Positions 1,820 through 57,552 of a DNA stretch of 64,000 bases are shown piece by piece. This DNA is from Candidatus Falkowbacteria bacterium RIFOXYA2_FULL_38_12. GTDB lineage: Bacteria > Patescibacteriota > Patescibacteriia > XYB2-FULL-38-15. The position numbers and the translations under genes were made by a program. The stretch is from assembly GCA_001778095.1 (NCBI GenBank), contig MFGA01000020.1, positions 75,805 to 139,804 of the forward strand, read 5' to 3'. Positions within the stretch are counted from its first letter, which is position 1, and each line of letters starts with the position of its first letter. The notes below the pieces were generated by a model that did no database searches, was not told the DNA's origin, and saw only the letters and a list, made by a program, of their open reading frames with translations.

Positions 1820-2332
1820 ATGAAAGCATTAATAATAATCGCTCAAAAAGATTTCAGAGACGAGGAATTTTTTGAGCCAAAAGAAATTTTAGAGAAAAAT
1901 GGCATTGAAGTAAAGGTGGCGAGCGAAGAATTGGCAATGGCGTACGGAAAAATGGGCGGAGAATTTATGCCGGATTTAAAACTGGAAGACGCGAAGGCGG
2001 AAGATTTTGACGCGATTATTTTTGTCGGAGGAATCGGGGCGGAAATGTATTTAGACGATCCGGTTGCTCATAGATTAGCCAATGATTTTCATGGCACGGG
2101 AAAAATTGTGGCGGCAATTTGTTTTGCTCCGTTGATTTTAGCGCATGCGGGAATACTTAACGGGAAAAAAGTGACAGCTTGGATCGGCGGAAAAGAAGAT
2201 TTGGAGGCGGCGCATAGCGCTGTTTACACCGGCAAGGCAGTGGAAGTTGACGGCAATATTATTACTGGGTCTGGTCCTGCGGCGGCGAAAGAGTTTGGAG
2301 AAAAAATAGTTCAGGCTTTATTGAAGGGATAA
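1820..2332 (+). CDS. DJ-1/PfpI family protein
   Basis: 170 aa. Conserved nucleophile elbow region AAICFAPLILAHAGIL and overall DJ-1/PfpI layout. Confidence 0.65.
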   Translation: MKALIIIAQKDFRDEEFFEPKEILEKNGIEVKVASEELAMAYGKMGGEFMPDLKLEDAKAEDFDAIIFVGGIGAEMYLDDPVAHRLANDFHGTGKIVAAICFAPLILAHAGILNGKKVTAWIGGKEDLEAAHSAVYTGKAVEVDGNIITGSGPAAAKEFGEKIVQALLKG

Positions 2333-2443: not shown

Positions 2444-3196
2444 ATGAAGAAAAAATTAAAACTTGTTATTGCCAGCATGACTTGTTGCGAAGGATGCCAG
2501 GTGGAAATTTTGAATTTGGGAGAAAGATTGTTAAATATTTTTGAAATTTTTGATCTTGGAAATTTTTCTTGGGTTAAAGAAAAAGAAGAAATTGATTATT
2601 ACGATGTTGCCTTGATTGAGGGAACACCATTAACCGACGAGGATATTCAAAGTTTGAAAGAATTAAGAAAAAAATCAAAAATAATCGTGGCTATGGGAAC
2701 TTGCGCCCATCTCGGTGGAGTGCAAGAAATAAAAAATTATACGGAGAATAGAAAAAATGAAAAAGCAAAATACGTCTATTCAAAATATCAGAGAATAGAA
2801 AATAAGGTTGTTGTACCCCTTAGCAAGATTGTCAAAATTGATTATGTCGCACCCGGATGCCCAATCAATAAAGATGAGCTTTATAATATTCTTTGCGACA
2901 TTGCCATAGGAAAATCACCGAAAATTGCCCCGCGGCCGGTTTGTTTTGAATGCCAGAATAATGGCTATCCATGTTTATTGCAAAAAGGGGAGCCCTGCCT
3001 CGGGCCGATCACTCTTGGTGGATGCGACGCGGTATGTTTAAAAAGTAATAGATTTTGTTATGGTTGCCGTGGTCCGATAAACGCGAAAAGCCCGATAATA
3101 AAAAGGCATTTGGAAAATATAAAAAAATTGGTTGGAGAAAAATATTTGGCGGAAATTCTTGAAACTTTTGGAGCCGAGGATGATTTTATAAAATAA
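2444..3196 (+). CDS. [NiFe] hydrogenase small subunit, group 3 (sulfhydrogenase delta-like)
   Basis: N-terminal proximal-cluster motif TCCEGCQ (compare TSCYGCQ of Pyrococcus sulfhydrogenase delta). Cys-rich C-terminal FeS cluster ligands. Immediately precedes the large subunit. Confidence 0.7.
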   Translation: MKKKLKLVIASMTCCEGCQVEILNLGERLLNIFEIFDLGNFSWVKEKEEIDYYDVALIEGTPLTDEDIQSLKELRKKSKIIVAMGTCAHLGGVQEIKNYTENRKNEKAKYVYSKYQRIENKVVVPLSKIVKIDYVAPGCPINKDELYNILCDIAIGKSPKIAPRPVCFECQNNGYPCLLQKGEPCLGPITLGGCDAVCLKSNRFCYGCRGPINAKSPIIKRHLENIKKLVGEKYLAEILETFGAEDDFIK

Positions 3197-3200
3197 ATTT

Positions 3201-4472
3201 ATGAAAATAACCATAAATCATTTAGCAAAAATTGAAGGTCATGCCGGATTTTTTGCTGATATTTTGAATGGCGACATAAAAAACGCTAAAATCAAAGTTA
3301 AAGTCGGAGCGAGATTGATTGAGGGAATTGTTTTAAATAGGAATTATGTTGAGACTCCAATTGTTACTTCAAGAATTTGCGGGATCTGTTCGGTCGCTCA
3401 CAATCTAACGAGCATTAAAGCCCTGGAAAACGCTTTTAATATAAAGATTACGCCAAAAGCGGAAATACTGCGCAAAATTTTATTTTTGGCCGAACCGATT
3501 CAAAGCCACGCCACCCATCTTTTCTTTTTGTCATTGTCGGATTTCTTCAAGTACGACAATGACCTAGATCTAATAAAAAAATATCCGGATTTAACAAAAA
3601 AAATAGTTTCAATCAGGGATTTTGGGAATAGAATAAAAGAAGTTATCGGCGGAAGGGATATGCATCTTTTATCCACCGAAATTGGAGGATTTAGGAAAGA
3701 GCCGGAAGAAAAGGAGTTGAAAAAAATATATTTTGCGGTAGATAAAGTTTTAGAGGAGGCGATAGTAGTGGCGGAATTTTTTAAAAAATTAAATTATCCA
3801 GATTATGAGAGAAAAATTGAACTTGTCGGATTGGTGGGAAAAAATGAATATTCTTTTTATAAAGGAGAAATGAAAACCTCTTCCGGAGAGAAGACGAGCA
3901 TTAAAAGTTTCTATAAAGAATTATCGGAAGAGCAAACAAATTACGATCCAACCAAAAGAGTGAAACATAAAGGGAGAGAGTTTATGGTTGGGGCGATCGC
4001 GAGACTAAATTTGAGCCATAGCTTACTGAATCCGGAAGCTAAAAAATTATTGGATTTTTTTGGAAGTAAAAAAACGGGCAATGCTTTAATCACCAAAAAT
4101 ACTTTTCATAATATTTATGCCCAAGCCGTGGAACTGGTGCATTGCGCGGAAGAAGTGAAAAATTTATTGGATAATTATTTTAAAGATAAATCAAAAATAT
4201 TATTAGTTAAATATAGAATGCGAAACGGAGAAGGTCTGGCCGCGACCGAGGCGCCACGGGGGACTCTTTATCACTATTATAAAGTAGATCGTTATGGCAT
4301 TATAAGGGAATGCAATATAATCCCGCCGACCGCGCAGTTTTTGGACAGCCTGGAAAATGATCTGGAAAAATACTTATCGGAAGCGGAGATAAAAAATGGC
4401 GAAGATAGGAAAAGAAAAATAAATATGCTGGTGCGGGCGTATGATCCATGTATGACCTGCGCGACACACTAA
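3201..4472 (+). CDS. [NiFe] hydrogenase large subunit, group 3-like
   Basis: N-terminal RICGICSVAH (RxCGxCxxxH) and C-terminal DPCMTCATH (DPCxxCxxH) Ni-Fe ligand motifs. 423 aa. The ORF ends exactly at the His, with no C-terminal extension. Confidence 0.85.
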   Translation: MKITINHLAKIEGHAGFFADILNGDIKNAKIKVKVGARLIEGIVLNRNYVETPIVTSRICGICSVAHNLTSIKALENAFNIKITPKAEILRKILFLAEPIQSHATHLFFLSLSDFFKYDNDLDLIKKYPDLTKKIVSIRDFGNRIKEVIGGRDMHLLSTEIGGFRKEPEEKELKKIYFAVDKVLEEAIVVAEFFKKLNYPDYERKIELVGLVGKNEYSFYKGEMKTSSGEKTSIKSFYKELSEEQTNYDPTKRVKHKGREFMVGAIARLNLSHSLLNPEAKKLLDFFGSKKTGNALITKNTFHNIYAQAVELVHCAEEVKNLLDNYFKDKSKILLVKYRMRNGEGLAATEAPRGTLYHYYKVDRYGIIRECNIIPPTAQFLDSLENDLEKYLSEAEIKNGEDRKRKINMLVRAYDPCMTCATH

Positions 4473-4554
4473 AGAAAATTAAAAGTTAAAAATGAAAAGT
4501 TAAAAGTTAAAGATTATATAACTTTTCACTTTGCACTTTTAATTTCTCACTTCT

Positions 4555-4818
4555 ATGCATGATTTACACGAAGCTGATAGAATATTAAAGCTGGTCTTGG
4601 ACCATGCCGAAAGAAATAATTTTAAAAAAGTTACCAAAATCATTATAGGTCTTGGTAATATTATTGAGCACGGCTTGAATATTGATCCCGATAATTTAAA
4701 ATTTAATATTTCCATGTTGGCGCGAGAGACAAAAGCCGATGAAGCCGAAATTGTTGTGGAAAAAATAGATGGCGATACGTGGGAATTAAAAGAAATTGAG
4801 GGGGATAAAAATATATGA
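4555..4818 (+). CDS. HypA-like small protein lacking the zinc-finger cysteines (possible Ni-binding N-terminal domain only)
   Basis: 87 aa. N-terminal MHDLHE resembles the MHE Ni-binding motif of HypA, but there is no CxxC...CxxC. Position directly after the hydrogenase genes. Confidence 0.3.
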   Translation: MHDLHEADRILKLVLDHAERNNFKKVTKIIIGLGNIIEHGLNIDPDNLKFNISMLARETKADEAEIVVEKIDGDTWELKEIEGDKNI

Positions 4819-6086: not shown

Positions 6087-6863
6087 ATGGGAAATTTTTG
6101 GCCACAATGGCGCGAGAACAAACTTTTTACAGTTATCGTTACTCTGGCAATGCTCGGAGTCCTTGGCGTTCTTGGAACAATCATTGCTAAAGATCTAAAA
6201 GGGTATCAGTATATTGGCAGACCGACGGCGGAAAGAGATGTGATTAATATCTCCGGAGAAGGAAAAGTGACAGGTATTCCTGATATTGCCACAATTCAGG
6301 TCGGACTTATTACGGAAAAAGGAGATGTTAAAACAGCGCAGAAAGAAAATACAGATAAACTAAATCGTTTGATCACAACCTTAAAAAATTTAGGGGTTGA
6401 AGATAAAGACATTCAAACAAGTTATTATAATATTTATCCGCAATATGATTGGACGGATGGAAAACAACAATTGAGAGGCTATCAAGTCAGCCAGGGGGTT
6501 GCAATCAAGATAAGAAATTTAAGTAAAATTGGTGATATGCTCGCCGCAGCAGGGGAAGGTGGCGCGAATCAAGTTAGTGGCTTAACATTTAATATTGATG
6601 ATCCGGAAAAATTGAAACAAGAAGCAAGGTTGAAAGCCTTAGCAAATGCTAAAGAAAAAGCGGAAGCGTTGGCCGAAGCCGCTGGCGTTAAACTAGGGAA
6701 AGTGGTTTCTTTCAGTGAGTACTCCGATTCGCCGGCCGATTACAGGACAATGATGGACAGCTATGGCGCCGGAGGCGGGGAGATGAAAGTGGCTTCTCCT
6801 GTAATTGAAAGTGGTAGTATTGATATAGTGGTGACAGCAACAGTGGGGTATGAGATAAAATAG
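6087..6863 (+). CDS. SIMPL/DUF541 domain protein (periplasmic, oxidative-stress-defense-like)
   Basis: N-terminal TM helix. SIMPL-like core (GYQVSQGVAIKIRNL..., LKALANAKEKAEALAEAAG). Confidence 0.55.
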   Translation: MGNFWPQWRENKLFTVIVTLAMLGVLGVLGTIIAKDLKGYQYIGRPTAERDVINISGEGKVTGIPDIATIQVGLITEKGDVKTAQKENTDKLNRLITTLKNLGVEDKDIQTSYYNIYPQYDWTDGKQQLRGYQVSQGVAIKIRNLSKIGDMLAAAGEGGANQVSGLTFNIDDPEKLKQEARLKALANAKEKAEALAEAAGVKLGKVVSFSEYSDSPADYRTMMDSYGAGGGEMKVASPVIESGSIDIVVTATVGYEIK

Positions 6864-7025
6864 ACCCGATGAATAATAATCTTTCGTTACGAAACGCAGT
6901 AATTTTAGGATAAAAATTTAGAAAAGCGACGATGTTTATATGATTAGATATAAGCGGAGGAGCTTTTGCAAATTTTTAGCCAAAATTACTAGTTGCAGTA
7001 GAAAGAATTATTATTCAGTGGGTCT
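6862..7025 (-). repeat. ~160-nt structured repeat, copy 1 (inverted orientation relative to copies 2 and 3)
   Basis: Internal ~120 nt nearly identical to the reverse complement of 40906..41064 and 57362..57520. Flanked by its own ~19-bp terminal inverted repeat. Abuts the gpmI start codon. Confidence 0.8.
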
Positions 7026-7037
7026 AATGAACAATTT

Positions 7038-8585
7038 ATGGAAAAGAAAAAAACAACAGCCCTTATTATTCTTGATGGATGGGGGCTTGCTCCGCCTGGT
7101 CAGGGAAACGCCGTTTCTCTTGCTAAAACTCCGACCATGTCAGAACTCTGGAAAAATTTTCCGCACACCGAACTTATCGCGCATGGAAAAAGGGTCGGGT
7201 TGCCGGGTAATCAAGAGGGAAATTCTGAAGCCGGTCATATGAACCTGTCTTCCGGTTTTATTGTTAAACAAGACGCGGTTTACATTAATGATAGTATTGA
7301 AGATGGAACTTTTTTCAAGAATAATGCCTTCGCTGAAGCGATAAGGCACGCTAAAAAATATAAGTCAAAAGTCCATTTGATGGGGCTTCTTTCTAATGGA
7401 GAAAGCGCTCATTCTTTTCCCACCCATCTTTATTCGCTTTTGGATCTTTTGCATCAGAATAAAGTTGGAGATGTTTTTCTGCATTTGTTTACAGATGGCC
7501 GAGATTCTGGTAGATTTGCCTCAATAAAGCTCCTTTCAAAATTAAGGACGCATTTTCACGGAAATGAGAGAATAGCTTCTATTATGGGTAGATTTTACGC
7601 AATGGATAGAGTAAAAAATTGGAAAAGAACAGAATTGGCCTATAATGCCATGGTATTGGGAGGGGAACTAATTGCCGAAAGCGCTGAGGCGGCAATTTCA
7701 ACAGCCTACAACAGGGGAGAAACGGATGAGTTTATTTTGCCAACAGTTATTTTTAAGGATCATGGAGCGACATCAAGGATAGATGATAATGATGCAGTTA
7801 TATTTTTTAACCTTCGTTCAGACAGGGCAAGGGAACTGACAAAAACAATTACTCAAGAAAATTTTAATGGAAAAAATGGAGGATCATTCAAAAGGGAAAA
7901 AGTCTTAAAGAACATTTGTTTTGTCGCCATGACCGATTTCGGTCCGGACTTGCCCGGGGTTATTACAGCTTTTCCCAGTCGCGATATTGAAAATAGTTTA
8001 CCTTCATGTTTAAAAGAGAAGAGACAAATATATATTGCCGAAACCGAGAAATATGCGCATGTTACTTATTTTTTTAACGGAGGATACGCAGATCCGATTT
8101 TTGGAGAAGAGAGAGTGAGAATACCATCGCCCAATGTTCCCAGATATGAAGATAAACCGGAAATGAGCGCGCCGGAGATTACTAAAAATGTAGAATCTTT
8201 TATTCATTCAGGAGTTTATGATTTCATTACGGTTAATTTTTGCAATCCGGATATGATCGGTCATACGGGTAATATAAAAGCGGGGATTAAAGCGGTTAAT
8301 GTAGTTGATATTTGTTTAAAGAGATTGATTAAGGAAATTTTCAGAAATAAAGGCGTCGCTATTGTTACCGCCGATCATGGAAACATTGAAGGGATGATAA
8401 ATCTAAAAACAGGAGAAATAGATACCGAGCATTCAACCAATCCGGTTCCGTTTATTGTCGCCGGAGAAAATTTTAAAAATAAAAAAATAAAAAAAGGGAT
8501 TTTGGCGGATGTCGCGCCAACCATTCTTGATATTATGGATCTTCCGAAACCGAAGACAATGACGAGAAAAAGCCTATTAAATTAA
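7038..8585 (+). CDS. gpmI: 2,3-bisphosphoglycerate-independent phosphoglycerate mutase
   Basis: 515 aa. N-terminal LIILDGWGLAPPG and metal-binding regions typical of iPGM. Confidence 0.9.
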   Translation: MEKKKTTALIILDGWGLAPPGQGNAVSLAKTPTMSELWKNFPHTELIAHGKRVGLPGNQEGNSEAGHMNLSSGFIVKQDAVYINDSIEDGTFFKNNAFAEAIRHAKKYKSKVHLMGLLSNGESAHSFPTHLYSLLDLLHQNKVGDVFLHLFTDGRDSGRFASIKLLSKLRTHFHGNERIASIMGRFYAMDRVKNWKRTELAYNAMVLGGELIAESAEAAISTAYNRGETDEFILPTVIFKDHGATSRIDDNDAVIFFNLRSDRARELTKTITQENFNGKNGGSFKREKVLKNICFVAMTDFGPDLPGVITAFPSRDIENSLPSCLKEKRQIYIAETEKYAHVTYFFNGGYADPIFGEERVRIPSPNVPRYEDKPEMSAPEITKNVESFIHSGVYDFITVNFCNPDMIGHTGNIKAGIKAVNVVDICLKRLIKEIFRNKGVAIVTADHGNIEGMINLKTGEIDTEHSTNPVPFIVAGENFKNKKIKKGILADVAPTILDIMDLPKPKTMTRKSLLN

Positions 8586-8624
8586 AAGTTTCCACCTCTG
8601 CCAAGGCTGCGGTGGGCAAGAAAA

Positions 8625-8700
8625 ATGTAAAGTGAAAAATTACAGTTAAAAGTCCAAAGTTAGAAAGACTTTTAACTTTTAATTTATCACTTTTAACTTA
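8625..8700. repeat. AT-rich palindromic AAAGTGAAAA/GTTAAAAGT element
   Basis: Imperfect hairpin built from AAAGTGAAAAATTACAGTTAAAAGT and the reverse-complement words ACTTTTAACTTTTAATTTATCACTTTTAACTT. Ends 4 nt before the GTG start of the second gpmI. Confidence 0.7.
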
Positions 8701-8704
8701 ATCT

Positions 8705-10279
8705 GTGCGTCCAAAACCAGTAATACTTATTATCCTTGATGGGTGGGGAATAGCGCCACCCGGTCCGGGCAACGCGATCGCTTTAGCCAGGACTCCGAAT
8801 ATAAGTAAGCTAATAAATAATTATTCGGCAATGACCCTTAGAGCCTCCGGTGATGAGGTTGGCTTATCGTGGGGAGAAATGGGAAATTCCGAAGTTGGCC
8901 ATTTAAATCTAGGTGTTGGCAGAATCTTTTATCAGACCTTGCCCAGAATAAATAAAGCCATTGACGGCGAGTCTTTTTTTGAAAGCAGTGTTTTAAAAGA
9001 GGCAACAGAACATATTAAAAAAAACAATTCGAGCCTCCACTTGATGGGTCTTTTGAGTTCCGGACGGGTTCACTCAACTATTGATCATCTCTTTTCTCTG
9101 CTAAAGTTTGCCAGGGATAATAAAATAAAAAAAGTTTTTATTCATGTCTTTTTGGATGGCCGAGATACTATTTATAATAGCGGAGCAGATTTTATTAAAA
9201 AGCTGGAAGAAAAGATAAAAGAATATCGCGTAGGGAAAATTGCCACACTCTCCGGACGTTTTTACGCGATGGATCGAGATAATCGTTGGGACAGAACGGA
9301 AAAAGCCTATCGGGCAATTGTTGAGGGAGTTAGTGATGAATCTTGCGATAGCGCGGAAAAAGCGGTTCAGCTGTCTTATGGCAAAGAAGTCTATGATGAG
9401 GAGTTTATTCCGATCATCATTACGGAAAAGGGACAGCCGGTAGCCAAAATTGAAAAAAATGACGCGGTTATCTTTTTTAATTACAGAGCGGACAGAGCGC
9501 GACAAATAACCAAGGCTTTTGTCGCGGATAATTTTGATAAATTTCAAAGAGAAAAAATAGATAATCTATTTTTTGCGACAATGACCGAATATGAAAAAGA
9601 TTTGCCGGTGAAAATTATTTTTCCGCCGGAAGAAATAAAAGTTTCGTTGGCAAAAGTGATCTCGGAGGCGGGATTAAAACAATTGCACATTGCCGAAACC
9701 GAGAAATACGCCCATGTGACATTTTTTTTCAATGGCATGAAGGAAGAAGAGTTTCCCGGGGAAACGCGCATTATAGTTCCTTCCCCAAAAGTTTCTTCTT
9801 ATGAAGAAAAACCGTCTATGTCTGCCCAAGAAATTACAGAAAAATTAATAAAAGAAGTAATGAGTCAAAAATATGATTTTATAGTCGCCAATTTTGCCAA
9901 CGCTGATATGGTCGGGCACACCGGAAATATGGAGGCAACCAAAGAGGCTATAGAAATGGTAGATAAATGTGTTGGAAAAATAGTCGATGTCGCCTTATCC
10001 GTAAACGGCGCTGTGGCTATAACCGCCGATCATGGCAATGCCGAGGAGCTGATGAATTTAGAAACATCGGAAATGGATAAAGAGCATAGTAATAATCCGG
10101 TTCCTTTTATCTTGATTCGAAAAGATGAAAAGGGTTCGGTAGCAGGAGGCGCGGGAAATGAAAATATTGACTTGAGTATGGCTTCTCCGGCCGGAATTTT
10201 AGCCGACGTTGCTCCAACAATTTTAAAAATTATGGAAATACAGAAGCCGGACGAAATGACGGGAGCGGAATTAATATAA
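8705..10279 (+). CDS. gpmI: 2,3-bisphosphoglycerate-independent phosphoglycerate mutase, second paralog
   Basis: 524 aa. GTG start. VILIILDGWGIAPPGPGNAI plus conserved iPGM core. Tandem to the first copy. Confidence 0.85.
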   Translation: MRPKPVILIILDGWGIAPPGPGNAIALARTPNISKLINNYSAMTLRASGDEVGLSWGEMGNSEVGHLNLGVGRIFYQTLPRINKAIDGESFFESSVLKEATEHIKKNNSSLHLMGLLSSGRVHSTIDHLFSLLKFARDNKIKKVFIHVFLDGRDTIYNSGADFIKKLEEKIKEYRVGKIATLSGRFYAMDRDNRWDRTEKAYRAIVEGVSDESCDSAEKAVQLSYGKEVYDEEFIPIIITEKGQPVAKIEKNDAVIFFNYRADRARQITKAFVADNFDKFQREKIDNLFFATMTEYEKDLPVKIIFPPEEIKVSLAKVISEAGLKQLHIAETEKYAHVTFFFNGMKEEEFPGETRIIVPSPKVSSYEEKPSMSAQEITEKLIKEVMSQKYDFIVANFANADMVGHTGNMEATKEAIEMVDKCVGKIVDVALSVNGAVAITADHGNAEELMNLETSEMDKEHSNNPVPFILIRKDEKGSVAGGAGNENIDLSMASPAGILADVAPTILKIMEIQKPDEMTGAELI

Positions 10280-20299: not shown

Positions 20300-20505
20300 T
20301 TTTTAGGAGATTTGACAAATATCTATCCATAAGGTAAACTCTTTAAAAGTGAATAAAGCCATAGACAGCAGGCGTTCCGTCCAGCGGAACTTAATCAAAG
20401 AAAGCCCGCCGAGGTAAATCGCCCCTTTTGGGGATTATGTCTGTGGTAATGCCACAGTTTTTTATTACAAATTACGCAAATAAAAGCGAATATAAAACTA
20501 ATATT
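20300..20505 (+). promoter_or_regulatory. candidate ribosomal protein L10 leader / rplJL promoter region
   Basis: ~200 nt structured non-coding region (gcaggcgttccgtccagcggaac hairpin) immediately upstream of rplJ. L10(L12)4 autoregulatory leaders occupy this position in many bacteria. Confidence 0.35.
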
Positions 20506-25540: not shown

Positions 25541-25972
25541 ATGTTTATTGGCGAATACAAGCATACAATTGATGAAAAGGGGAGACTGGCCGTGCCGGTC
25601 AAGTTTCGAGCTCAATTATCCGGAGGCGCGGTAGTGACGAGAGGCCTGGATAATTGTCTTTTTTTATATACAGAAGAAGAATGGAAGAATTTAGCCGAGA
25701 GATTGGCAAAATTACCAATTGGCAAAGCTAATTCCAGAGCTTTTGCGAGATTGATGCTCGCCGGAGCAATGGATGTTTCCTTAGATAAACAGGGAAGAAT
25801 TATTTTGCCTGATTATTTAAGAAAATATGCGGCAGTGGGAAAAAATGTTGTTGTCGCCGGTCTTTATAATCGTTTGGAAATTTGGGATGAAGCAAAATGG
25901 GAAGAATATAAAAACGGAACAGAAAGTTCAAGTGGAGATATAGCCGAGCAATTGGGGGAGCTTGGCGTATAA
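25541..25972 (+). CDS. mraZ: transcriptional regulator MraZ
   Basis: Two SpoVT/AbrB-like halves. N-terminal MFIGEYKHTIDEKGRLAVP is typical of MraZ. Confidence 0.9.
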   Translation: MFIGEYKHTIDEKGRLAVPVKFRAQLSGGAVVTRGLDNCLFLYTEEEWKNLAERLAKLPIGKANSRAFARLMLAGAMDVSLDKQGRIILPDYLRKYAAVGKNVVVAGLYNRLEIWDEAKWEEYKNGTESSSGDIAEQLGELGV

Positions 25973-26007
25973 AGAAGTTAAAAGTGAAAAATGAAAAGTT
26001 AAAAGTT
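25972..26007. repeat. AAAGTGAAAA/GTTAAAAGT element (single arm)
   Basis: aaagaagttaaaagtgaaaaatgaaaagttaaaagtt, immediately 5' of the rsmH ATG. Confidence 0.6.
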
Positions 26008-26994
26008 ATGGTTGAGGAATCAAAATATAAAGGACATATTCCTGTTCTGCTCGATGAAGTTATAGAAAATTTTGATCCAAAGCCAAACCAAAATTTTGTT
26101 GATTGCACTTTAGGTGGCGGGGGACACAGCGCGGCGATTCTTAAATTGACGGGTCCGTCCGGAAAGGTGTTAGGGATAGATTTGGACGAACAAGCTATTA
26201 AAGCCGCGGAGTTAAAAGTTTCTTCCTTCGCCAAGGCTACGAAGGACAAGAAAAATGAAAAGTTGGAAGTTGGCCGATTGATTGCGGTAAAAGGAAATTT
26301 CAGAGATTTAAAAAACATTGTTCATCAAAATAATTTTGAGAATATTTCCGGAATTTTACTGGATTTGGGGTTTTCTTCAATGGAAATGGATGATTCAGAA
26401 AAGGGTCTTTCATTTAGATATGACGCGCCACTGGATATGCGTTTTGGGGAAGAGGGGATAACAGCAGAAGAAGTTATTAATAATTTTAAAGAAAAAGAGT
26501 TGGAAGATATTTTTAGGACTTATGGAGAGGAAAGATTTTCCGGAAGAATTGCCAGAATTATCTGCGAGGTGAGGAAGGAAAAGCCTATCCGAACAACATT
26601 TGAACTAGTTGAGGCGATAAGAAAAGTAATTCCCGGTAAGTTCCAGTACGGGCGAATTCACTTCGCGACAAAAGTTTTTCAGGCTTTGCGTATCTTTGTA
26701 AATCAAGAATTAGATAATTTGAAAATCGTCTTGCCTCAAGCGATCGATTTATTGTTGCCGGGAGGACGACTTGCGGTGATTTCCTTTCATTCTTTGGAAG
26801 ATAGGATTGTTAAAGAATTTTTTAAGCGAGAATCACGAGACTGTATTTGTCCGAAAGAGATGCCGATTTGTCAGTGTGACCACAAAGCAAAATTAAAAAT
26901 ATTAAATAAGAAACCAATAATTCCAAAAGAGGGGGAGGCAAAAATAAATCCCAGGTCACGAAGCGCAAAGCTCCGAGTAGCGGTTAAGTTGTGA
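26008..26994 (+). CDS. rsmH: 16S rRNA (cytosine1402-N4)-methyltransferase RsmH (MraW)
   Basis: HIPVLLDEV...DCTLGGGGHS SAM-binding start and the conserved RsmH core. The earlier ATG at 25984 lies inside the repeat element and was rejected. Confidence 0.9.
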   Translation: MVEESKYKGHIPVLLDEVIENFDPKPNQNFVDCTLGGGGHSAAILKLTGPSGKVLGIDLDEQAIKAAELKVSSFAKATKDKKNEKLEVGRLIAVKGNFRDLKNIVHQNNFENISGILLDLGFSSMEMDDSEKGLSFRYDAPLDMRFGEEGITAEEVINNFKEKELEDIFRTYGEERFSGRIARIICEVRKEKPIRTTFELVEAIRKVIPGKFQYGRIHFATKVFQALRIFVNQELDNLKIVLPQAIDLLLPGGRLAVISFHSLEDRIVKEFFKRESRDCICPKEMPICQCDHKAKLKILNKKPIIPKEGEAKINPRSRSAKLRVAVKL

Positions 26995-27612: not shown

Positions 27613-27687
27613 CTGTCATTCCCGCGAAGGCGGGAATCCACTCGCAATTATTTTAAAGTAGATTCCCGCCTTCGCGGGAATGACAAA
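27613..27687. repeat. twin GC hairpins with identical stems and complementary loops
   Basis: GTCATTCCCGC-gaag-GCGGGAATC and its exact reverse complement GATTCCCGC-cttc-GCGGGAATGAC, 21 nt apart. Overlaps the first annotated codons of tgt. Confidence 0.6.
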
Positions 27688-30459: not shown

Positions 30460-33203
30460 ACTGCGCCGCGTGCGCTGGAAGCGGAAAAATCGGAGGAGGG
30501 AAGTGCCTTTCCTGCCATGGTTTGGGTATGGGAATTTATAGAGACAAAAAATTTCTATATTGGAATAAAATAATTACAAATCAGGAGTTGGAAAAGAAAA
30601 AAGCGGAGAAATTCTTAAAATTATTTTTAAATGGGATATCTTTTGTTTTTAGCGTTCTGGCTACTCTACTTTTACTTTGGCAAATAGTGGAAAACAGTTT
30701 TTTTGGCCAGATTTTTACCTTATCTTTTTGGATTTCGGGCAGTCCGGTCGTAACCTTATTTTTGGTTTCTTTATTGGTTGACGCTTATTTAATTTATCGT
30801 TTTTCCGAAGAAATTGCCCAAAAGGCGAAGATTGAGAAAAAAGAATATCAAGACAAGGAGGGAGAGAAAAAAGAGGAGGTAATGGAAACTCTTCCGTCCG
30901 ACTGGGTTTCCGTGCGCGATTTATCAAGCAAAATAAAAATAAATGTTGCCGATACTTTTACTTTTGATGCCCAAAAAGCCGTAGAGGATGCTTTTTTTGT
31001 GGCCACAAAATTTAATCATGGTAAAATTTTGCCATTGCATCTTTTTATAGCTCTTCTTTTTTCCAAAAAGGCGGCAATAGTTTTTGGAAGATTGGGAGTG
31101 AATTTAAAAGAAATGCAGGAAAAACTAGGCCGACAAATATCTTCTGTGGGTGAACTTCTTGCGGAAGGTCAAGAGTCGGTTTTTAGCGAAGAATTAATCC
31201 AATTATTTTTTGATGGATATTTTGAAGCCTACAATTCAAGGCGAGAACAGATTGATATTGCCGAACTTTTGCTCGTTGTTTCCAGATCTAATCCAATCAT
31301 TCAAGAATTGCTTTATGAATATGAAGTTGATCTTGATAAGTTGAAAAACGTAGTGGAGTGGCTTAGGATTTCCGAATTTTTAAGAAAAAGATGGCAAAAA
31401 ACAAGAACGCTGGCGAGATTAAAGCCGGGGGGCACAATGTCGCGGGCAATGACAGCTGTGGCCACGCCATATTTGGATCGTTTCAGTCAGGATTATACAA
31501 TGATGGCAAAATACGGATATTTCGCGCCGTGTCTCGGCAGGGAAAAAGAAATTGAGGAAATTTTTAGAATTATAGAAGGCGGTCGGCAGAGCGTTATTTT
31601 AATCGGTAATCCGGGAATAGGAAAATCGGCAATCCTCGAAGGTATTGCCCAAAGGATGGTGGAAGAAGATGTGCCGAAAATTTTGCAAGACAAAAGATTA
31701 GTAAATTTAAATATCGGACAATTGGTTGCCGGAGCGACGGCTTCTGAAGTTCAAAAAAGATTGTTGATGATTTGCGATGAAATAGCCCGCGCGGGAAATA
31801 TCATTCTTTGCATTCAGGATATTGAAGGAATGATCGGAATTACTTCCGGCGATAAAGAGAGTATTGATTTATCAAGAGTTTTGGCTGATGAATTGTCGCA
31901 AGGTTATTTTTTTGCGATTGCTTCGGCAAGATCCGGAGTGTATGGTCAATACATTGAAAACTCTTCGTTGGGGGCGGTTTTGCAAAAGGTGACAATAGAA
32001 GAGCCGGATACTAATGGAGCGATCCAAATTTTGGAAGGTAAGGCCGGAGCGATTGAATATCAAAACAAAGTGGTTTTTTCTTATGACGCTATTTCCAAGG
32101 CGGTGATTTTGTCCGGTCGTTATTTGCACGACAGATATTTACCGGAAAAAGCCATAGAAATAATGAGAGAAGTAGCACATTATGCGGCAGGGAAACGCGG
32201 AGTGGGGACAATCGTTGTCGGGGAAGATGTGGCTGAAGTAATCGCGCAAAAAACCAAAATACCAGTAACCGCGGTAAATGAAGTTGAATCGGAAAAATTA
32301 TTGCGCCTGGAAGAAGAAATGCATAAGCGAGTGATTGGTCAAGAAGAAGCGATTAAAATGATTGCCGCGGCGCTTCGTCGGGCGAGAGCGGAAATTCGCG
32401 AGGCTAAGCGACCGATTGCCAACTTTTTATTTTTGGGACCGACCGGTGTAGGAAAAACCGAAACGGCAAAAACAGTTTCCGAGGTTTATTTTGGCGATGA
32501 GAGAAATATGATTCGGCTTGATATGTCAGAATATCAAGATCAAGCCAGTATTTATCGCTTGATCGGCGCGCCGGCAGGAAATTCAGCCGGACTTTTGACC
32601 GAGGCGGTGCGTAAAAATCCTTTTACTTTGGTTTTGCTGGATGAAATAGAAAAATCCCATCCGGATATTTTGAATGTTTTTTTGCAAGTTATGGATGACG
32701 GTCGCCTGACCGATAACTTGGGTCGAACGGTTGATTTTACTAATGTTATTTTAATTGCCACTTCCAATGCCGGTTCTCCGGCGATTCAAGACGGAATAAA
32801 GCAAGGATTGACTATTGAAGCGGTCAAAGAGCAACTTATAAATACGGAATTAAAGCCATATTTCAGACCGGAGTTTTTAAATCGTTTTGACGGGATTGTT
32901 GTTTACCGTCCGCTTACCAGTCCGGAAATAGAACAAATTGCCGGCTTGATGCTTGCCAAAATCGGGAAACAGTTGGAGAATAAGCGGGGGATTGTTCTTG
33001 AGGTTACGGGCGAAGCTGTGCGCGAACTAGCCGCGGCTGGTTTTGATCCTGCTTTTGGAGCAAGACCATTACGTCGAGTGATTCAGGAAAAAGTTGAGGA
33101 TGGCTTGACTAATCTTATTTTGACGAAGAAAATTGAAAGAAGAGATAAAGTTATTTTGGAAGTTGGGGGAAATTTTAGAATAGAAAAGGGGAGAGTGTTA
33201 TAA
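30432..33203 (+). CDS. membrane-anchored ClpC/ClpB-like AAA+ ATPase with N-terminal DnaJ-type zinc-finger motifs
   Basis: Two AAA+ modules (Walker A GNPGIGKS and GPTGVGKT, sensor and arginine-finger regions). Clp_N-like repeats. N-terminus carries CAACAGSG and CLSCHGLG (CxxCxGxG) followed by two TM helices. Confidence 0.8.
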   Translation: MLKMPNNFLNCAACAGSGKIGGGKCLSCHGLGMGIYRDKKFLYWNKIITNQELEKKKAEKFLKLFLNGISFVFSVLATLLLLWQIVENSFFGQIFTLSFWISGSPVVTLFLVSLLVDAYLIYRFSEEIAQKAKIEKKEYQDKEGEKKEEVMETLPSDWVSVRDLSSKIKINVADTFTFDAQKAVEDAFFVATKFNHGKILPLHLFIALLFSKKAAIVFGRLGVNLKEMQEKLGRQISSVGELLAEGQESVFSEELIQLFFDGYFEAYNSRREQIDIAELLLVVSRSNPIIQELLYEYEVDLDKLKNVVEWLRISEFLRKRWQKTRTLARLKPGGTMSRAMTAVATPYLDRFSQDYTMMAKYGYFAPCLGREKEIEEIFRIIEGGRQSVILIGNPGIGKSAILEGIAQRMVEEDVPKILQDKRLVNLNIGQLVAGATASEVQKRLLMICDEIARAGNIILCIQDIEGMIGITSGDKESIDLSRVLADELSQGYFFAIASARSGVYGQYIENSSLGAVLQKVTIEEPDTNGAIQILEGKAGAIEYQNKVVFSYDAISKAVILSGRYLHDRYLPEKAIEIMREVAHYAAGKRGVGTIVVGEDVAEVIAQKTKIPVTAVNEVESEKLLRLEEEMHKRVIGQEEAIKMIAAALRRARAEIREAKRPIANFLFLGPTGVGKTETAKTVSEVYFGDERNMIRLDMSEYQDQASIYRLIGAPAGNSAGLLTEAVRKNPFTLVLLDEIEKSHPDILNVFLQVMDDGRLTDNLGRTVDFTNVILIATSNAGSPAIQDGIKQGLTIEAVKEQLINTELKPYFRPEFLNRFDGIVVYRPLTSPEIEQIAGLMLAKIGKQLENKRGIVLEVTGEAVRELAAAGFDPAFGARPLRRVIQEKVEDGLTNLILTKKIERRDKVILEVGGNFRIEKGRVL

Positions 33204-33270
33204 GTTAAAGGTTAAAAGTGAAAAATGAAAAGTTGCAACTTCTCACTTTTAACTTTTCATTTTTCACTTT
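33203..33270. repeat. AAAGTGAAAA/GTTAAAAGT palindromic element
   Basis: gttaaaggttaaaagtgaaaaatgaaaagtt + gcaa + cttctcacttttaacttttcatttttcacttt (near-perfect hairpin). Confidence 0.75.
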
Positions 33271-33272
33271 AT

Positions 33273-34349
33273 ATGTATTTTCTCGCGTTCATTGCCGCGT
33301 TTTTATTGGCAGTTTTTTTTACTTATTTCGTCCGGAAAATTGCGTTTAGATTTAATGTTGTGGACACGCCGGGCGGAGAAAGGAAAATTCACAAAAAGCC
33401 AATTCCGCTTTTGGGCGGTTTGGCGATTTTTTTGTCGTTTTTTTTAGTTCTCGGTTTTTTTCTTTTTTTCACGGATAAAATTTTAGCCGGACAAATTTTA
33501 GCAAAACATTTTCTCGGCATTTTTATCGGCGGTGTTTTTTTAATGATTGGCGGAGTTCTGGATGACAAGTACAATTTAAGGGCAAGGTGGCAGCTCGTTT
33601 GGCCGATCCTTGCGGCGATAGCGGTAATTGTGAGTGGTATTGGGGTAAACTATGTTACGAACCCCTTTGGGGGCCTAGTACAGCTTGATAGCTTAAAATT
33701 TGTTCTTTTTAATTTTGACGGGGTTCCCTATAAAATAACTTTGTTGTCCGATGTTTTTACTTTTCTTTGGCTAATGGGAATGATGTATACGACAAAACTT
33801 TTGGACGGACTTGATGGGCTTGTCTCGGGCGTGACCACAATCGGCGCGGTTATTATTTGTTTTGTCAGTTTGATGTCAGAAGTTTCCCAGCCGGAAACGG
33901 CTATTTTGGCCATCGCCTTAGCCGGAGCCTTTGCCGGTTTTTTGATTTGGAATTTCAACCCCGCAAAAATTTTTCTGGGAGAAAGCGGGAGTATTTTTGC
34001 CGGATTTATGCTGGGATCTTTATCTATCATCGCCGGCGGTAAAATTGCCACAACGCTTTTAATTATGGGTTTGCCAATTATAGATGTTTTGATTGTTATT
34101 ATCCAAAGATTATTCAAGTCAAAAAAGATTTTCGCGGCGGATAAAAGGCATCTCCATTTTAGACTCCTTGAAGCCGGTCTAACTCAAAGGCAAGTCGTTC
34201 TAGTTCTTTATGGTATTACTTTTATTTTTGGAATTTCCACGCTAGTTTTAAAAACAGAAGGAAAGATTTTTGCTTTGGGCGCATTGTTTTTACTGGCGAT
34301 AGTTTTGACAGTTGTTTTGTTGAAGAGAAATAAAGAGGGCTTAGAATAA
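33273..34349 (+). CDS. glycosyltransferase family 4 polyprenyl-phosphate HexNAc-1-phosphate transferase (WecA/MraY family)
   Basis: VVDTPGGERKIHKKPIPLLGG (WecA-like) and multiple TM helices. The ORF-table start at 33225 translates the palindromic element and was rejected. Confidence 0.75.
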   Translation: MYFLAFIAAFLLAVFFTYFVRKIAFRFNVVDTPGGERKIHKKPIPLLGGLAIFLSFFLVLGFFLFFTDKILAGQILAKHFLGIFIGGVFLMIGGVLDDKYNLRARWQLVWPILAAIAVIVSGIGVNYVTNPFGGLVQLDSLKFVLFNFDGVPYKITLLSDVFTFLWLMGMMYTTKLLDGLDGLVSGVTTIGAVIICFVSLMSEVSQPETAILAIALAGAFAGFLIWNFNPAKIFLGESGSIFAGFMLGSLSIIAGGKIATTLLIMGLPIIDVLIVIIQRLFKSKKIFAADKRHLHFRLLEAGLTQRQVVLVLYGITFIFGISTLVLKTEGKIFALGALFLLAIVLTVVLLKRNKEGLE

Positions 34350-34989: not shown

Positions 34990-35080
34990 TGTTTCCCCTC
35001 CCTTGATGGGAGGGGCTAGGGGAGGGTGGTCGTATAAATTCACCCCCACCTAACCTCCCCCATCGAGGGGGAGGAAATTT
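34990..35080. repeat. paired GC-rich hairpin element (CCCCTCCC-loop-GGGAGGGG family)
   Basis: CCCCTCCC-ttgat-GGGAGGGG, a middle GGTGG/CCACC stem, then CCTCCCCC-atcga-GGGGGAGG. Confidence 0.65.
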
Positions 35081-38588: not shown

Positions 38589-38665
38589 GGACGATTAGCT
38601 CAGTTGGTTAGAGCGTTCGATTCACATTCGAAAGGTCGGAGGTTCGAATCCTCCATCGTCCACCA
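38589..38665 (+). tRNA. tRNA-Val (anticodon CAC)
   Basis: Cloverleaf: acceptor GGACGAT/ATCGTCC, D-arm GCTC..GAGC, anticodon stem TTCGA/TCGAA with loop TTCACAT, T-arm GGAGG-TTCGAAT-CCTCC, encoded CCA. Confidence 0.8.
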
Positions 38666-38668
38666 GAC

Positions 38669-38775
38669 GAAGTTAAAAGTGAGAAGTGAAAAATTAAAAG
38701 TTGTTGATGATCTGCCCTTAACTTTAAATTTTGAACTGTAACTTTTCACTTTGCATTTTTAACTTTTAATTTATT
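38669..38775. repeat. AAAGTGAAAA/GTTAAAAGT palindromic element
   Basis: agttaaaagtgagaagtgaaaaattaaaagtt ... acttttcactttgcatttttaacttttaattt. Lies between the tRNA and the lepB ATG. Confidence 0.7.
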
Positions 38776-39426
38776 ATGTCATACAACAATTCTGAACCCG
38801 GTCTTGAAAATTTTGGCGGACAGGATGAAGAAAAAAAAATCGTTGAAGAGGAATTAAAAAAGCCGAGTACGTTACGTTATGTTGCCGACTATGTTTTAGA
38901 GTTTGCCAAAATCGTAGTCCTTTCATTGGCAATTATTATTCCGGTTAGATATTTTTTGATTCAGCCTTTTTATGTAAAGGGCGCGTCCATGGAACCCAAT
39001 TTTTTTGACCATGAATATTTAATCATCAACGAAATTAGCTATCGCTTTGAAACGCCGGAAAGAGGGGATATTATCGTTTTTAAATATCCTCACGACCCCA
39101 GTCAATATTTTATAAAAAGAGTAATTGGTTTACCGAATGAAACAGTAGAGATTAAGGATAACAAAATTACGATTTACAACAAAGATAATCCAAACGGCAT
39201 TGCCCTTGATGAAAAATATTTGGAAGACACTGTTCAGACTTTTGGCAACAAGACTCTTGCTCTCGGGGTTGATGAATATTTTGCCCTGGGAGACAACCGG
39301 ACAGCCAGCTATGATTCCAGAAGTTTTGGAGCGGTAAATAAAAGTTTCATTGTTGGAAAAGTTTGGGTGCGAGGTTGGCCGTTTAACAAGATTAAAGTTT
39401 TTGAAACGCCGGAATATAATTTTTAA
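38776..39426 (+). CDS. lepB: signal peptidase I
   Basis: S26 family. Ser box GASMEPN, Lys box KRVIGLPNETVE, GDNR motif. Confidence 0.85.
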   Translation: MSYNNSEPGLENFGGQDEEKKIVEEELKKPSTLRYVADYVLEFAKIVVLSLAIIIPVRYFLIQPFYVKGASMEPNFFDHEYLIINEISYRFETPERGDIIVFKYPHDPSQYFIKRVIGLPNETVEIKDNKITIYNKDNPNGIALDEKYLEDTVQTFGNKTLALGVDEYFALGDNRTASYDSRSFGAVNKSFIVGKVWVRGWPFNKIKVFETPEYNF

Positions 39427-40870: not shown

Positions 40871-40905
40871 CAAGCTAATAAAAAATATAATATATAGACC
40901 CCCCG

Positions 40906-41064
40906 AACAATAATCCTTTCTACTGCAACTTGTAATTTTGTCTACAAATTTTCTAAAGCTCCTCCGCTTATCCTGCGGATAAACATCGTCGCTTTATCCC
41001 CGCCATGGGCGGGGCGCTCAAAATTACTGCGTTTCGTAACAAAAGATTATTATTCAGTGGGTCT
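40906..41064 (+). repeat. ~160-nt structured repeat, copy 2
   Basis: Shares ctttctactgcaact.gtaatttt ... ccgcttatcc...ggataaacatc ... aaaattactgcgtttcgtaac with copies 1 and 3. Has its own terminal inverted repeat. Confidence 0.8.
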
Positions 41065-41084
41065 AAAGAAAGAGGGGTGAAATC

Positions 41085-41974: not shown

Positions 41975-42068
41975 ATTTTAAAGTTAAAAGTGCAAAGTAA
42001 AAAATTAAAAGTTACAATTCAAAGTTAAAAGTTGTTAGCAGTTAATTTTAAACTTTTCACCTTTAGGC
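41975..42068. repeat. AAAGTGAAAA/GTTAAAAGT element
   Basis: aaagttaaaagtgcaaagtaaaaaattaaaagttacaattcaaagttaaaagtt ... aaacttttcaccttt, ending 2 nt before the ATG. Confidence 0.65.
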
Positions 42069-43980: not shown

Positions 43981-44075
43981 AGTGAAAGGTTAAAAGTGAA
44001 AGATGAAAAATTAACGAGTTTTCAACTTTCAACTTTTAACTGTAACTTTACACTTTTCATTTTTCACTTTTAATT
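43981..44075. repeat. AAAGTGAAAA/GTTAAAAGT palindromic element
   Basis: agtgaaaggttaaaagtgaaagatgaaaaatt ... aacttttaactgtaactttacacttttcatttttcacttttaattt. Confidence 0.7.
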
Positions 44076-44079
44076 TACG

Positions 44080-53658: not shown

Positions 53659-53685
53659 GAGAATATACATATAGAGACTAAAATT

Positions 53686-54495: not shown

Positions 54496-54570
54496 ACTAA
54501 GAGGAAAAAGGCAACTTTAAACTTTTAATTGTAACTTTTCACTTCTCATTTTTAACCTTTAACTTAATAC
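54496..54570. repeat. AAAGTGAAAA/GTTAAAAGT element (reverse-arm words only)
   Basis: ggcaactttaaacttttaattgtaacttttcacttctcatttttaacctttaactt, ending 8 nt before the ATG. Confidence 0.6.
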
Positions 54571-55311: not shown

Positions 55312-55390
55312 CCTCCCCTTTGACAGGGGAGGCGAGGAGGGGATGATTATTCAAGTCACCCTCCCCTAACCCCTCCCGTCAAGGGAGGGG
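55312..55390. repeat. paired GC-rich hairpin element (CCCCTCCC-loop-GGGAGGGG family)
   Basis: CCTCCCC-tttgaca-GGGGAGG and CCCCTCCC-gtcaa-GGGAGGGG. Same family as 34990..35080. Confidence 0.65.
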
Positions 55391-55433
55391 AACACTGCTA
55401 ATCTGCTTATAGACTTATTAGCTAAATTTAAAT

Positions 55434-56486
55434 ATGTTTGGAATTGGAAAAAAATCAGCCACGCCGGTTATTGATCCCGAAGGAATTGCCATAAAGGTGA
55501 TGCCCGAGGAGTTTTATTCTAAAAAAGGTAGTATGAGTCGGCCGGCTAGCGAAGAGCCAAGAACGGCGAGTATTTTGCCCCCACCCATTCCTTCTCCCGC
55601 GAGTCCCGTCTCTGCCCCGTTTGATCCCAACAGGCAACAACTTGCTACCCCGCGAGAGAAACCAACGTTGATTATTGTTTTGATTGCCGTGGCAGTCCTT
55701 TTGATTGGTGGCGCTATTTTTCTTTTTATCCAAAGCTTGAATATAGGAAAAGAACCGGTTAAAAGCGAGCCCATTGTTGAAGAAGAGCCAATAAAAGAAC
55801 CTCCGGCTCCTCCCGCTCCTATTTGTGGCGATGGGCAATGCGAAGATGACGAGAATTCAATAAGTTGTCTTTCCGATTGTCCGCTTCCGCCAGAACCAGA
55901 ACCCGTGGCTCCGGTTATTTTGCCAATGGCTCCCGACAGTGACGGAGATGGATTAACGAGTATGGAGGAAGAACTTTTTGGAGTAAGTGGCGAAAATTCG
56001 GACACGGATAGTGATGGTTATAAAGATGGGTTGGAAGTAATTAATTTGTATAATCCTTCGGGCTTTGCCCCTCAAAAAATAGAAGAAACAAAGCTAGTTG
56101 AAATTTATAAAAACCCAACATACAATTTTCAAGTTTTCTATCCGAAGAATTGGTTAGCCGGAGCTCTTAATGAAACCAACGAGGAAATAATGATCACGTC
56201 AGCAACGGGAGAATTTATTCAAATTATTGTTGTCGAAAATAAGGAAGGATTAGCTCTAATGGATTGGTATCTCGAAAAAGCGCCGGAGGTAAAACCGGCA
56301 GACGTGGGAACGGCTGCGACGAAAAACGGATTATTCGGTATTAAAACCCCGGATGAGTTGACGGCATATTTTAGTATCGGAGAAAAAATATTTGCTATCA
56401 GTTATAATGTTGGAGTAAAAACAGAATTAAACTATAAAAGCACTTTTGAAATGATTATAAGAAGTTTTAAAGTCAATGTTCGGTAA
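55434..56486 (+). CDS. TM-anchored Pro-rich protein with thrombospondin-type-3-like repeats and C-terminal globular domain
   Basis: TM helix. CGDGQCEDDENSISCLSDC. DSDGDGLTSMEEE...DTDSDGYKDGLEVINLYNPSG. Additional ~150-aa C-terminal domain. Confidence 0.5.
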   Translation: MFGIGKKSATPVIDPEGIAIKVMPEEFYSKKGSMSRPASEEPRTASILPPPIPSPASPVSAPFDPNRQQLATPREKPTLIIVLIAVAVLLIGGAIFLFIQSLNIGKEPVKSEPIVEEEPIKEPPAPPAPICGDGQCEDDENSISCLSDCPLPPEPEPVAPVILPMAPDSDGDGLTSMEEELFGVSGENSDTDSDGYKDGLEVINLYNPSGFAPQKIEETKLVEIYKNPTYNFQVFYPKNWLAGALNETNEEIMITSATGEFIQIIVVENKEGLALMDWYLEKAPEVKPADVGTAATKNGLFGIKTPDELTAYFSIGEKIFAISYNVGVKTELNYKSTFEMIIRSFKVNVR

Positions 56487-57302: not shown

Positions 57303-57361
57303 AGACTAATCTCTGATAAAATTTTGAATAATTTGTCAAAATTTTTTTAATATCTTATAAT

Positions 57362-57520
57362 AGACCTGTCGCATAACAATTCTTTCTACTGCAACTGGTA
57401 ATTTTGGCTAAAAATTTACAAAAGCTCTTCCGCTTATCCTATGGATAAACATCATCGCTTTTCTAAATTTATCCTAAAATTACTGCGTTTCGTAACGAAA
57501 AATTGTTATACGACAGGTCT
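57362..57520 (+). repeat. ~160-nt structured repeat, copy 3
   Basis: Terminal inverted repeat AGACCTGTCGCATAACAATT / AATTGTTATACGACAGGTCT. Internal sequence ~90% identical to copy 2. Confidence 0.8.
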
Positions 57521-57552
57521 AATAATAAAACTTAATTTCGGAAGGTTCTAAT

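Follow-up and report, generated by a model that had tools for sequence, protein, structure and literature searches.

The 64,000-nt stretch of Candidatus Falkowbacteria bacterium RIFOXYA2_FULL_38_12 analysed here (contig MFGA01000020.1, positions 75,805 to 139,804; called the window throughout) contains three copies of an intergenic repeat. The repeats are probably a non-autonomous, TA-targeting foldback MITE (miniature inverted-repeat transposable element) of about 160 bp, non-coding and palindromic throughout, which belongs to Falkowbacteria and to other bacteria of the candidate phyla radiation (CPR/Patescibacteria). The element is mobile: empty and filled sites occur at all three window loci among close relatives. 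We regard it as a new family of foldback MITE of the Correia/ERIC/bcr1 kind, and an independent RNA gene is not supported. A sequence-only reading of this DNA had offered a choice between an RNA gene and a mobile palindrome. The empty and filled sites bear out the second. The first finds no Rfam family, promoter or terminator in its favor, and the copies lie in mixed orientation.

Three copies of one family

Copy 1 spans 6861..7026 (166 nt, counting the flanking TA at both ends), copy 2 spans 40895..41065 (171 nt) and copy 3 spans 57361..57521 (161 nt). Copy 1 is inverted relative to the other two. That these form a family had been proposed from the letters alone, and block searches agree: the blocks AAAATTACTGCGTTTCGTAAC and CTTTCTACTGCAACTnGTAATTTTG (21 and 25 nt) occur three times each in the window, even with 3 mismatches allowed, where 0 are expected from 100 shuffles. 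For copy 2, the locus first given was right, but the start at 40906 was 11 nt too far in, so that the left terminal arm, TAGACCCCCCGAACAATAATC, was missed. A covariance model built from 23 copies matches only these three places when run on the window, with 159.5 bits for copy 1. The copies, which range from 160 to 171 nt, have no open reading frame (ORF) of their own of 40 aa or more. Their density is about one per 20 kb (3 in 64 kb, in both orientations). As had been noted, they lie just upstream of gpmI, rpsU and ftsA; the distances to the start codons are 11, 19 and 31 nt, respectively.

Each copy is bounded by TA. The left-end TA is at 6861..6862 in copy 1 (partner at 7025-7026), at 40895..40896 in copy 2 (partner at 41064-41065) and at 57361..57362 in copy 3 (partner at 57520-57521). 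Inside these lies a variable terminal stem. In copy 3, its left arm, 57363..57381, pairs with 57501-57519 (alignment columns 1-20 with 160-179). Copy 1 has the corresponding arms at 6863-6880/7007-7024, and copy 2 has them at 40897-40915/41045-41063. Next come two conserved blocks, one in each arm. The block CTTTCTACTGCAACTnGTAATTTTG, at 57382..57406 (+), 40916-40940 (+) and 6981-7005 (-), is invariant in 23 of 23 aligned copies. The other, AAAATTACTGCGTTTCGTAACrAAA, is at 57476..57500 (+), 41020-41044 (+) and 6882-6906 (-), and carries a local palindrome, TTTCG-n3-CGAAA.

A single hairpin with compensated arms

Folded end to end, each window copy makes a single imperfect hairpin whose stem measures about 75 bp. 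The minimum free energies of the window copies are -50 to -75 kcal/mol, with z-scores of -5 to -12 against shuffles. The terminal stems that had been quoted for copies 1 and 3 were correct, but the pairing reaches further, making the whole element one hairpin; the inner hairpins TTATCC-n3-GGATAA and TTATAT-n6-ATATAA are confirmed as well.

The structure-preserving covariation seen between the first copies holds in an alignment of 23 distinct copies, taken from genomes, from metagenomes and from the window itself, in which 58 pairs were scored. Pairing is kept in 95.5% of the cells, and 33 of the 58 pairs have changed on both sides. None of 500 shuffles matched the observed pairing and covariation. 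In a slid control, with partner columns shifted by 1-3, the pairing is reduced to 36-48%, and 9-16 pairs remain that have changed on both sides. The most variable part of the element is the 10 bp just inside each end, yet these are complementary, with up to five pair types per column. The compensated variation of the arms between copies sits at positions 6-15, and there are at least 15 distinct versions of the terminal stem. In more distant genomes, even the terminal GAC...GTC is altered, with compensation.

Other parts hardly vary. The two subterminal blocks, each about 25 nt long, show almost no variation. They differ between the arms and are only partly complementary to one another, and therefore form conserved asymmetric internal loops. 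The apical stem has two tandem GA/GA mismatches around a perfectly covarying pair (CG in 11 copies, GC in 11 and UA in 1). Reading the tandem GA motifs as a K-turn or C/D-box was considered by eye and dropped, the bulge geometry being unsuitable.

One strand folds better than the other

All 23 copies fold better on the same strand of the element, by 4-25 kcal/mol. For copy 1, the fold has -64.9 kcal/mol on the window plus strand and -52.4 on the minus strand. For copies 2 and 3, the better-folding strand is the window minus strand (-75.0 versus -49.9 and -69.0 versus -53.5 kcal/mol, respectively). The consensus gives -62.4 kcal/mol on the better strand and -45.2 on the other. The asymmetry is equally present in four copies of a second subfamily (described below) despite their different interiors, and it persists under DNA energy parameters. 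In the 20 terminal pairs, which are identical for either strand, the better-folding strand has G·U in 32 cells, spread over 15 columns, and A·C in 8 cells, spread over 7; these counts come from related copies and are not independent events, but they point the same way across deep sublineages.

Relative to the flanking genes, the better-folding strand has no fixed orientation. It runs the same way as the SIMPL-domain ORF and gpmI at copy 1, against hisS and rpsU at copy 2, and against dgkA and ftsA at copy 3. There is no replication-strand bias either, the GC skew being uniformly positive across the window with copies in both orientations. The folding asymmetry and the G·U count suggest that a strand-specific single-stranded form is under selection. 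The compensatory changes had already been taken to mean selection on a folded single strand, and the strand asymmetry strengthens that case.

Relatives in metagenomes and other genomes

Beyond the window, about 30 more copies turned up in metagenomes and in other CPR genomes. A scan of the JGI metagenomes with the right-arm 20-mer as query gave 20 loci with about 14 distinct copies. The same 20-mer had no match in the GTDB representative genomes, where a left-arm pattern gave 7 real loci and 6 chance ones. The 7 genome copies are in Candidatus Berkelbacteria, Candidatus Staskawiczbacteria and one further metagenome-assembled genome (MAG). The covariance model also revealed a diverged second subfamily in the related loci, in which the terminal stem and an outer module, CTTTCGTnnCGAAA / TTGCAGTAGAAAG, are kept and the interior is different. 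A single metagenome contig of 78 kb carries no fewer than 4 copies, and a fifth, weaker match on it is to subfamily 2. No matching copy was found in the viral contigs, phage records and plasmid records scanned. Searches of the window and of three loci against Rfam 15, both at the gathering threshold and with E as high as 10, placed no family over any copy.

Empty and filled sites

At the rpsU site, relatives with HisRS 96, 89 and 81% identical have a hisS-rpsU gap of 48-72 nt, versus 214 nt in the window. In place of the window's TA-element-TA, the empty sites (L048, L046 and L049) show one TA with (a)agaaag after it. The ftsA site is empty, with a single TA, in relatives with 96 and 85% identical FtsA. 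The empty alleles read ttataaTAataaaactt (L044) and cttataaTAgtaaaatt (L043), and the window reads ...cttataa[TA GACC...GGTC TA]ataaaactt. In a relative with 88% identical FtsA, the window's ftsA site is empty and another copy lies 12 nt downstream. The gpmI site is the gap between the SIMPL-domain gene and gpmI. There, L053 is empty and reads ...GAAATAAAA-TA-ATTATTATGG, with the TA lying within the TAA stop codon, and L051 is filled at the identical position. The SIMPL-domain ORF, 6087..6863, is unharmed by the insertion because the TA at 6861..6862 and the element's first G make a TAG stop codon. The reverse case also occurs: a subfamily-2 copy lies in the last codons of an L043 ORF, where the window is empty at 56476/7.

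A check for flanking duplications had been proposed to set this family apart from a conventional MITE. At the three window loci there is TA on both sides of the copies and a single TA in the empty sites, but the sequence-conserved terminal inverted repeats attributed to a conventional MITE are not there, since the outer 10 bp vary. Nothing beyond TA is conserved in the flanks. Since the empty sites hold no palindrome, the variable stems must travel with the element; derivation of the terminal stems from a palindromic target is ruled out for the same reason. The idea that the variable stem is a guide matching the flanks was also ruled out: the longest word shared with the flanks is 4-7 nt (mean 5.2, without a shuffled-flank control), and none is conspicuous.

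Copy 3 lies directly 3' of a promoter-like site, TTGTCA-17-TATAAT, at 57333..57361 on the plus strand, which has 11 of 12 matches in a consensus scan. The insertion point is the TA with which the -10 box ends, and the box is restored by this TA. The empty site of L044 has the identical TTGTCA...TATAAT. Because the insertion regenerates the -10 box, ftsA transcripts probably start inside copy 3, if the predicted promoter functions as such.

Modular variation among copies

The stem versions and the centre classes turn up in varied combinations; therefore, the copies recombine as modules. A variant with one nested G+C-rich hairpin at the same internal position is present at two loci of one genome, and from this it follows that variants propagate. 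In copy 2, such a mini-hairpin, CCCCGCC-ATG-GGCGGGG, occupies 40996..41019 in place of the usual A+T-rich stretch. Similar nested hairpins of about 20-30 nt are found at L041:9808-9838, in L051 around 3390-3420 and at L011:11609-11779, and another example is GCCCAAGGC-AGATCY-GCCTTGGGC. These small hairpins may constitute a miniature mobile element in their own right, for which the A+T-rich MITE serves as a landing site.

Three further rearrangements were seen among the copies. L014:1520-1682 and L019:834-996 are one locus, upstream of rpmJ, in two samples. Their flanks are otherwise nearly identical, and the central 73 nt are exactly inverted between 8-bp inverted repeats, GTAATTTT and AAAATTAC. 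L003:890-1057 has its left flank and left half as in the L009 copy and its right arm and right flank as in the L019 copy; it is either a recombinant of two copies or an assembly chimera across a 33-nt conserved block. L030:5991-6047 is an internally deleted derivative of 57 nt in which the left block and the two terminal arms survive, with its junction at a GG microhomology.

How the element may propagate

The foldback MITE that we favor would insert at TA dinucleotides of A+T-rich intergenic DNA, including the TA of a stop codon or of a -10 box. Its invariant subterminal blocks would be sequence-specific sites for a trans-acting enzyme encoded outside the window, and the outer 10 bp or so of the arms and much of the centre would be free to change provided that the pairing stays. 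Since the ends pair, and since G·U stands where the other strand has A·C, we infer that propagation selects a folded, strand-specific single strand (ssDNA or RNA) and not two separately bound duplex ends. Once inserted, the element would be co-transcribed with its neighbors, so that the leader or spacer of an mRNA would contain a long hairpin, and any effect on the expression of a neighbor would be a by-product. The default candidate for the mobilizing enzyme would be one of Tc1/IS630 type, producing a 2-bp duplication of TA.

Several observations weigh against this account. No transposase was found among the 10 window ORFs tested against Pfam, no multi-copy ORF in an all-against-all BLAST of the ORFs of 50 loci (~395 kb), no longer element with matching ends in a regular-expression search for orphan ends, and no transposase candidate in a PHROGs scan of 101 neighboring ORFs. 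Nor did the related loci yield a parent insertion sequence (IS) with matching terminal inverted repeats. The pattern of one TA in empty sites and two in filled sites fits a 2-bp duplication, but it fits equally well the insertion beside a TA of an element with a TA end of its own. In 8 of 23 copies there is a deviation at the outermost T or A, and TA, being itself palindromic, lengthens the stem. The junction of the filled L043 subfamily-2 site, compared with the empty window site at 56476/7, has no clean TA, and the relatedness of the copies behind the G·U count has been mentioned. Finally, a classical DDE transposase binds each double-stranded end separately and does not require that the ends pair, so the covariation goes unexplained by the simplest MITE model. 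A bolder proposal, which we make tentatively and consider rather unlikely, is that the ends of the element are specified by base pairing and not by sequence. One particular strand would be excised or copied as a hairpin (ssDNA or RNA) by an enzyme that reads the invariant asymmetric internal loops and cuts at the foot of the stem beside TA.

It is conceivable that the compensatory changes are unselected and come from template switching in a quasi-palindrome or from gene conversion between arms or between copies. Quasi-palindrome-templated mutation is a known mechanism. The precise inversion of the 73-nt centre between L014 and L019, the reshuffling of stem types and centre classes among copies, and the L003 chimera of two copies are all of the kind that it would produce. 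However, it would erase the asymmetric internal loops too, and those are invariant in every copy. Particular G·U positions last across many copies, and a double-stranded or symmetric process would not leave a single strand with 32 G·U cells and 8 A·C. We consider this reading unlikely. Template switching in the palindrome probably does contribute to the concerted changes of the arms, and the inverted L014/L019 centre shows such events, but it cannot explain the kept asymmetries or the strand bias. The strand bias could also be accounted for by a REPIN/PATE-like ssDNA element moved by an HUH (Y1) transposase, of which one strand would be excised as a hairpin and pasted beside a TA without duplication, the second TA being the 3' end of the element. 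The folding advantage is strand specific and independent of host-gene orientation, the one-TA and two-TA sites are also consistent with insertion beside a target, and compensatory changes across the hairpin have been reported in REPINs too (PMC3116915). There is also a Y1_Tnp gene (IS200/RAYT-like, 200 aa) at L050:108-750 in a 96%-identical relative, at a position corresponding to about 53659-53685 of the window, where two genes are only 27 nt apart. This gene is flanked by its own unrelated GAGGACAGTCCTT...AAGGACTGTCCTC hairpins (GGACAGTCC type); it was followed to the contig end, is not flanked by the repeat element and was rejected as the mobilizing gene. No Y1 gene is among the tested window ORFs. 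The element does not consist of two short G+C-rich REP hairpins, and copy 1 is opposed to copies 2 and 3 on one replichore of uniform GC skew. IS200/IS605 targets are 4-5 nt, whereas the flanks here conserve TA only. All told, an HUH-type element seems to us quite unlikely.

The remaining two explanations give the hairpin a role in the host. The host could have taken over a mobile hairpin for use as a cis-acting RNA, such as an RNase III or RNase E site, an mRNA stabilizer or a translation modulator, and selection at the level of the host would then keep the hairpin folded. Every copy lies within a few to about 100 nt of the start or end of a gene, and copy 3, between the promoter-like site and ftsA, would make up the leader of ftsA. 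Copy 1 and the L051 copy share a site next to a protein that is only 82% identical, with the hairpin kept in both. ERIC and NEMIS offer precedents (PMC2229807), and for ERIC and Correia elements a role as cis RNA elements in operon transcripts is proposed. Against this, copies 2 and 3 are missing in relatives with 96% identical proteins, which makes them recent and dispensable. The orientation is random although one strand alone folds best, and what separates copy 1 from the L051 copy is entire centre modules and not point changes, which indicates replacement or re-insertion and not retention at the site. We find co-option very unlikely. An even smaller chance is left to a trans-acting family of structured RNAs in which each copy would be its own gene for a hairpin RNA of about 160 nt, transcribed from the better-folding strand. 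Strong covariation, a strand bias made of G·U pairs, apical tandem GA/GA mismatches conserved around a covarying pair and a core conserved across CPR lineages are what such a family would show. However, copies are absent from close relatives and are present or absent between near-identical strains. Only TA is common to their flanks, and one copy lies within the 3' end of a coding sequence. With the orientation mixed, copies 2 and 3 would need transcription against the surrounding operons. Consensus promoter scans of the three copies found no site common to the copies or able to give a full-length transcript; an apparent TTACnn-17-TATTAn, read by eye, is below the threshold of the scan. Scans for terminator-like sites (a G+C-rich hairpin and a T run) at the three copies gave 0, and, as reported above, Rfam had no match.

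Other features of the window

The window holds a second, unrelated family of intergenic repeats, composed of A+T-rich AAAAGTK-like runs (e.g., AAGTTAAAAGTGAAAAATGAAAAGTT) usually followed by an inverted copy. The resulting long A+T hairpins lie between genes, in either orientation, at 4471-4562, 8620-8705, 25960-26015, 33201-33281, 38664-38789, 41980-42034, 43977-44091 and 54512-54569, and a similar hairpin is at L011:4590-4706. There are also G+C-rich arrangements. At 27614-27685 is an inverted doublet of TGTCATTCCCGCGAAGGCGGGAATC, whose arms, 29 nt long with 97% complementarity, are separated by 14 nt; every unit forms a small hairpin of its own, and the arrangement is REPIN-like in look. 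Inverted 36-nt C/G-rich copies of TTCCCCTCCCTTGATGGGAGGGGCTAGGGGAGGGTG, 94% complementary, lie 20 kb apart at 34993-35028 and 55357-55392. A near-perfect 65-nt hairpin (-38.9 kcal/mol) is at 2348-2412, between the ORFs 1820..2332 and 2444..3196; it gives a weak chance match to the covariance model (E 0.13) and is unrelated to the repeat family.

Among the genes, 7038-8585 and 8705-10279 are tandem paralogous gpmI (iPGM) genes, an arrangement that is the same in L051. The 636-aa ORF at 42070-43980 and the 3192-aa ORF at 44080-53658 have an N-terminal region in common (87% over 215 nt), and the larger one contains many Cys-rich repeats of about 90 nt. The sole Rfam matches in the window are to an L10 leader, at 20341-20473 with 47 bits (gathering threshold 44), and to a tRNA, at 38589-38662.

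Significance and comparison with known systems

The hosts of the element are tiny bacteria of groundwater. CPR/Patescibacteria genomes are about 1 Mb and contain very little non-coding DNA. The element is nevertheless dense and is spread over several CPR lineages, and its insertions at stop codons and promoter boxes leave these intact. The combination of invariant asymmetric blocks, hypervariable paired termini and a constant better strand forms a data set on what the transposition of a foldback MITE needs. In annotation of CPR genomes, the covariance model allows such repeats to be told apart from true regulatory RNAs, and the repeats explain some of the assembly chimeras and breaks in these MAGs.

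The element departs from the textbook MITE in that its outer inverted repeats are not conserved in sequence and that neither a parent IS nor a transposase was found by the searches above. Ends that vary freely while remaining paired are unusual, although other bacterial elements offer a partial precedent. It shares with the REPINs mobilized by RAYT (Y1) enzymes a long hairpin predicted in ssDNA or RNA, common two-sided compensatory changes, and conserved recognition blocks combined with sequence that is free but paired (PMC3116915). However, a REPIN is a doublet of short G+C-rich REP hairpins with conserved ends and a variable middle, and here the outermost part is the variable one. The arms are A+T-rich and not REP-like, the local palindrome (TTTCG-n3-CGAAA) is in one arm only, and no associated RAYT was found, the nearby Y1 gene having different hairpins. 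The PATE derived from IS200/IS605 differ as well; here the ends pair with each other and do not form separate subterminal hairpins, and no 4-5-nt target is conserved.

Among bacterial MITEs, TA termini together with long stem-loops have been described (PMC2229807). RUP of Streptococcus pneumoniae, a MITE of about 107 bp, inserts at TA (PMC2229807), and it is by analogy with RUP (with IS630-Spn1) that a Tc1/IS630-type enzyme is our default candidate. The ends of RUP match a known IS; no IS with ends matching the present element was found in the related loci. The bcr1 element of the Bacillus cereus group is about 155 bp, mobile and transcribed, and has compensatory changes that preserve its double-stranded structure (PMC3184786). 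It is flanked by 5-bp direct repeats and not by TA, and there is no sequence similarity.

ERIC/IRU (RU-1) of enterobacteria is an imperfect palindrome of similar size with TA termini, and it is co-transcribed with its neighbors with orientation-dependent effects (PMC2229807). Unlike the present family, ERIC has terminal repeats of about 7 bp, is one highly conserved sequence and has enterobacterial hosts, not CPR; the available portions of the two reviews (PMC2229807, PMC3184786) do not mention a strand asymmetry in its folding. The inverted repeats of Correia are 24-26 bp and conserved in sequence, in contrast to the outer 10 bp or so here, which are hypervariable and merely complementary. 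There is also no sequence similarity to Correia, and neither an IHF site nor an outward promoter was detected in our copies. In other respects, the likeness to Correia/NEMIS of Neisseria is close: these are non-coding elements of about 100-160 bp with TA termini and many intergenic copies in both orientations, often just 5' of genes, of which the whole forms a long stem-loop when transcribed (PMC2229807, PMC3184786). In the reviews consulted (PMC2229807), no mobilizing transposase is cited for elements of the Correia or ERIC type. If it is true that the ends are defined by pairing, this would be a mode of mobilization not described for TA-flanked bacterial MITEs, and it could also explain how these transposase-less elements of the Correia/ERIC type move.

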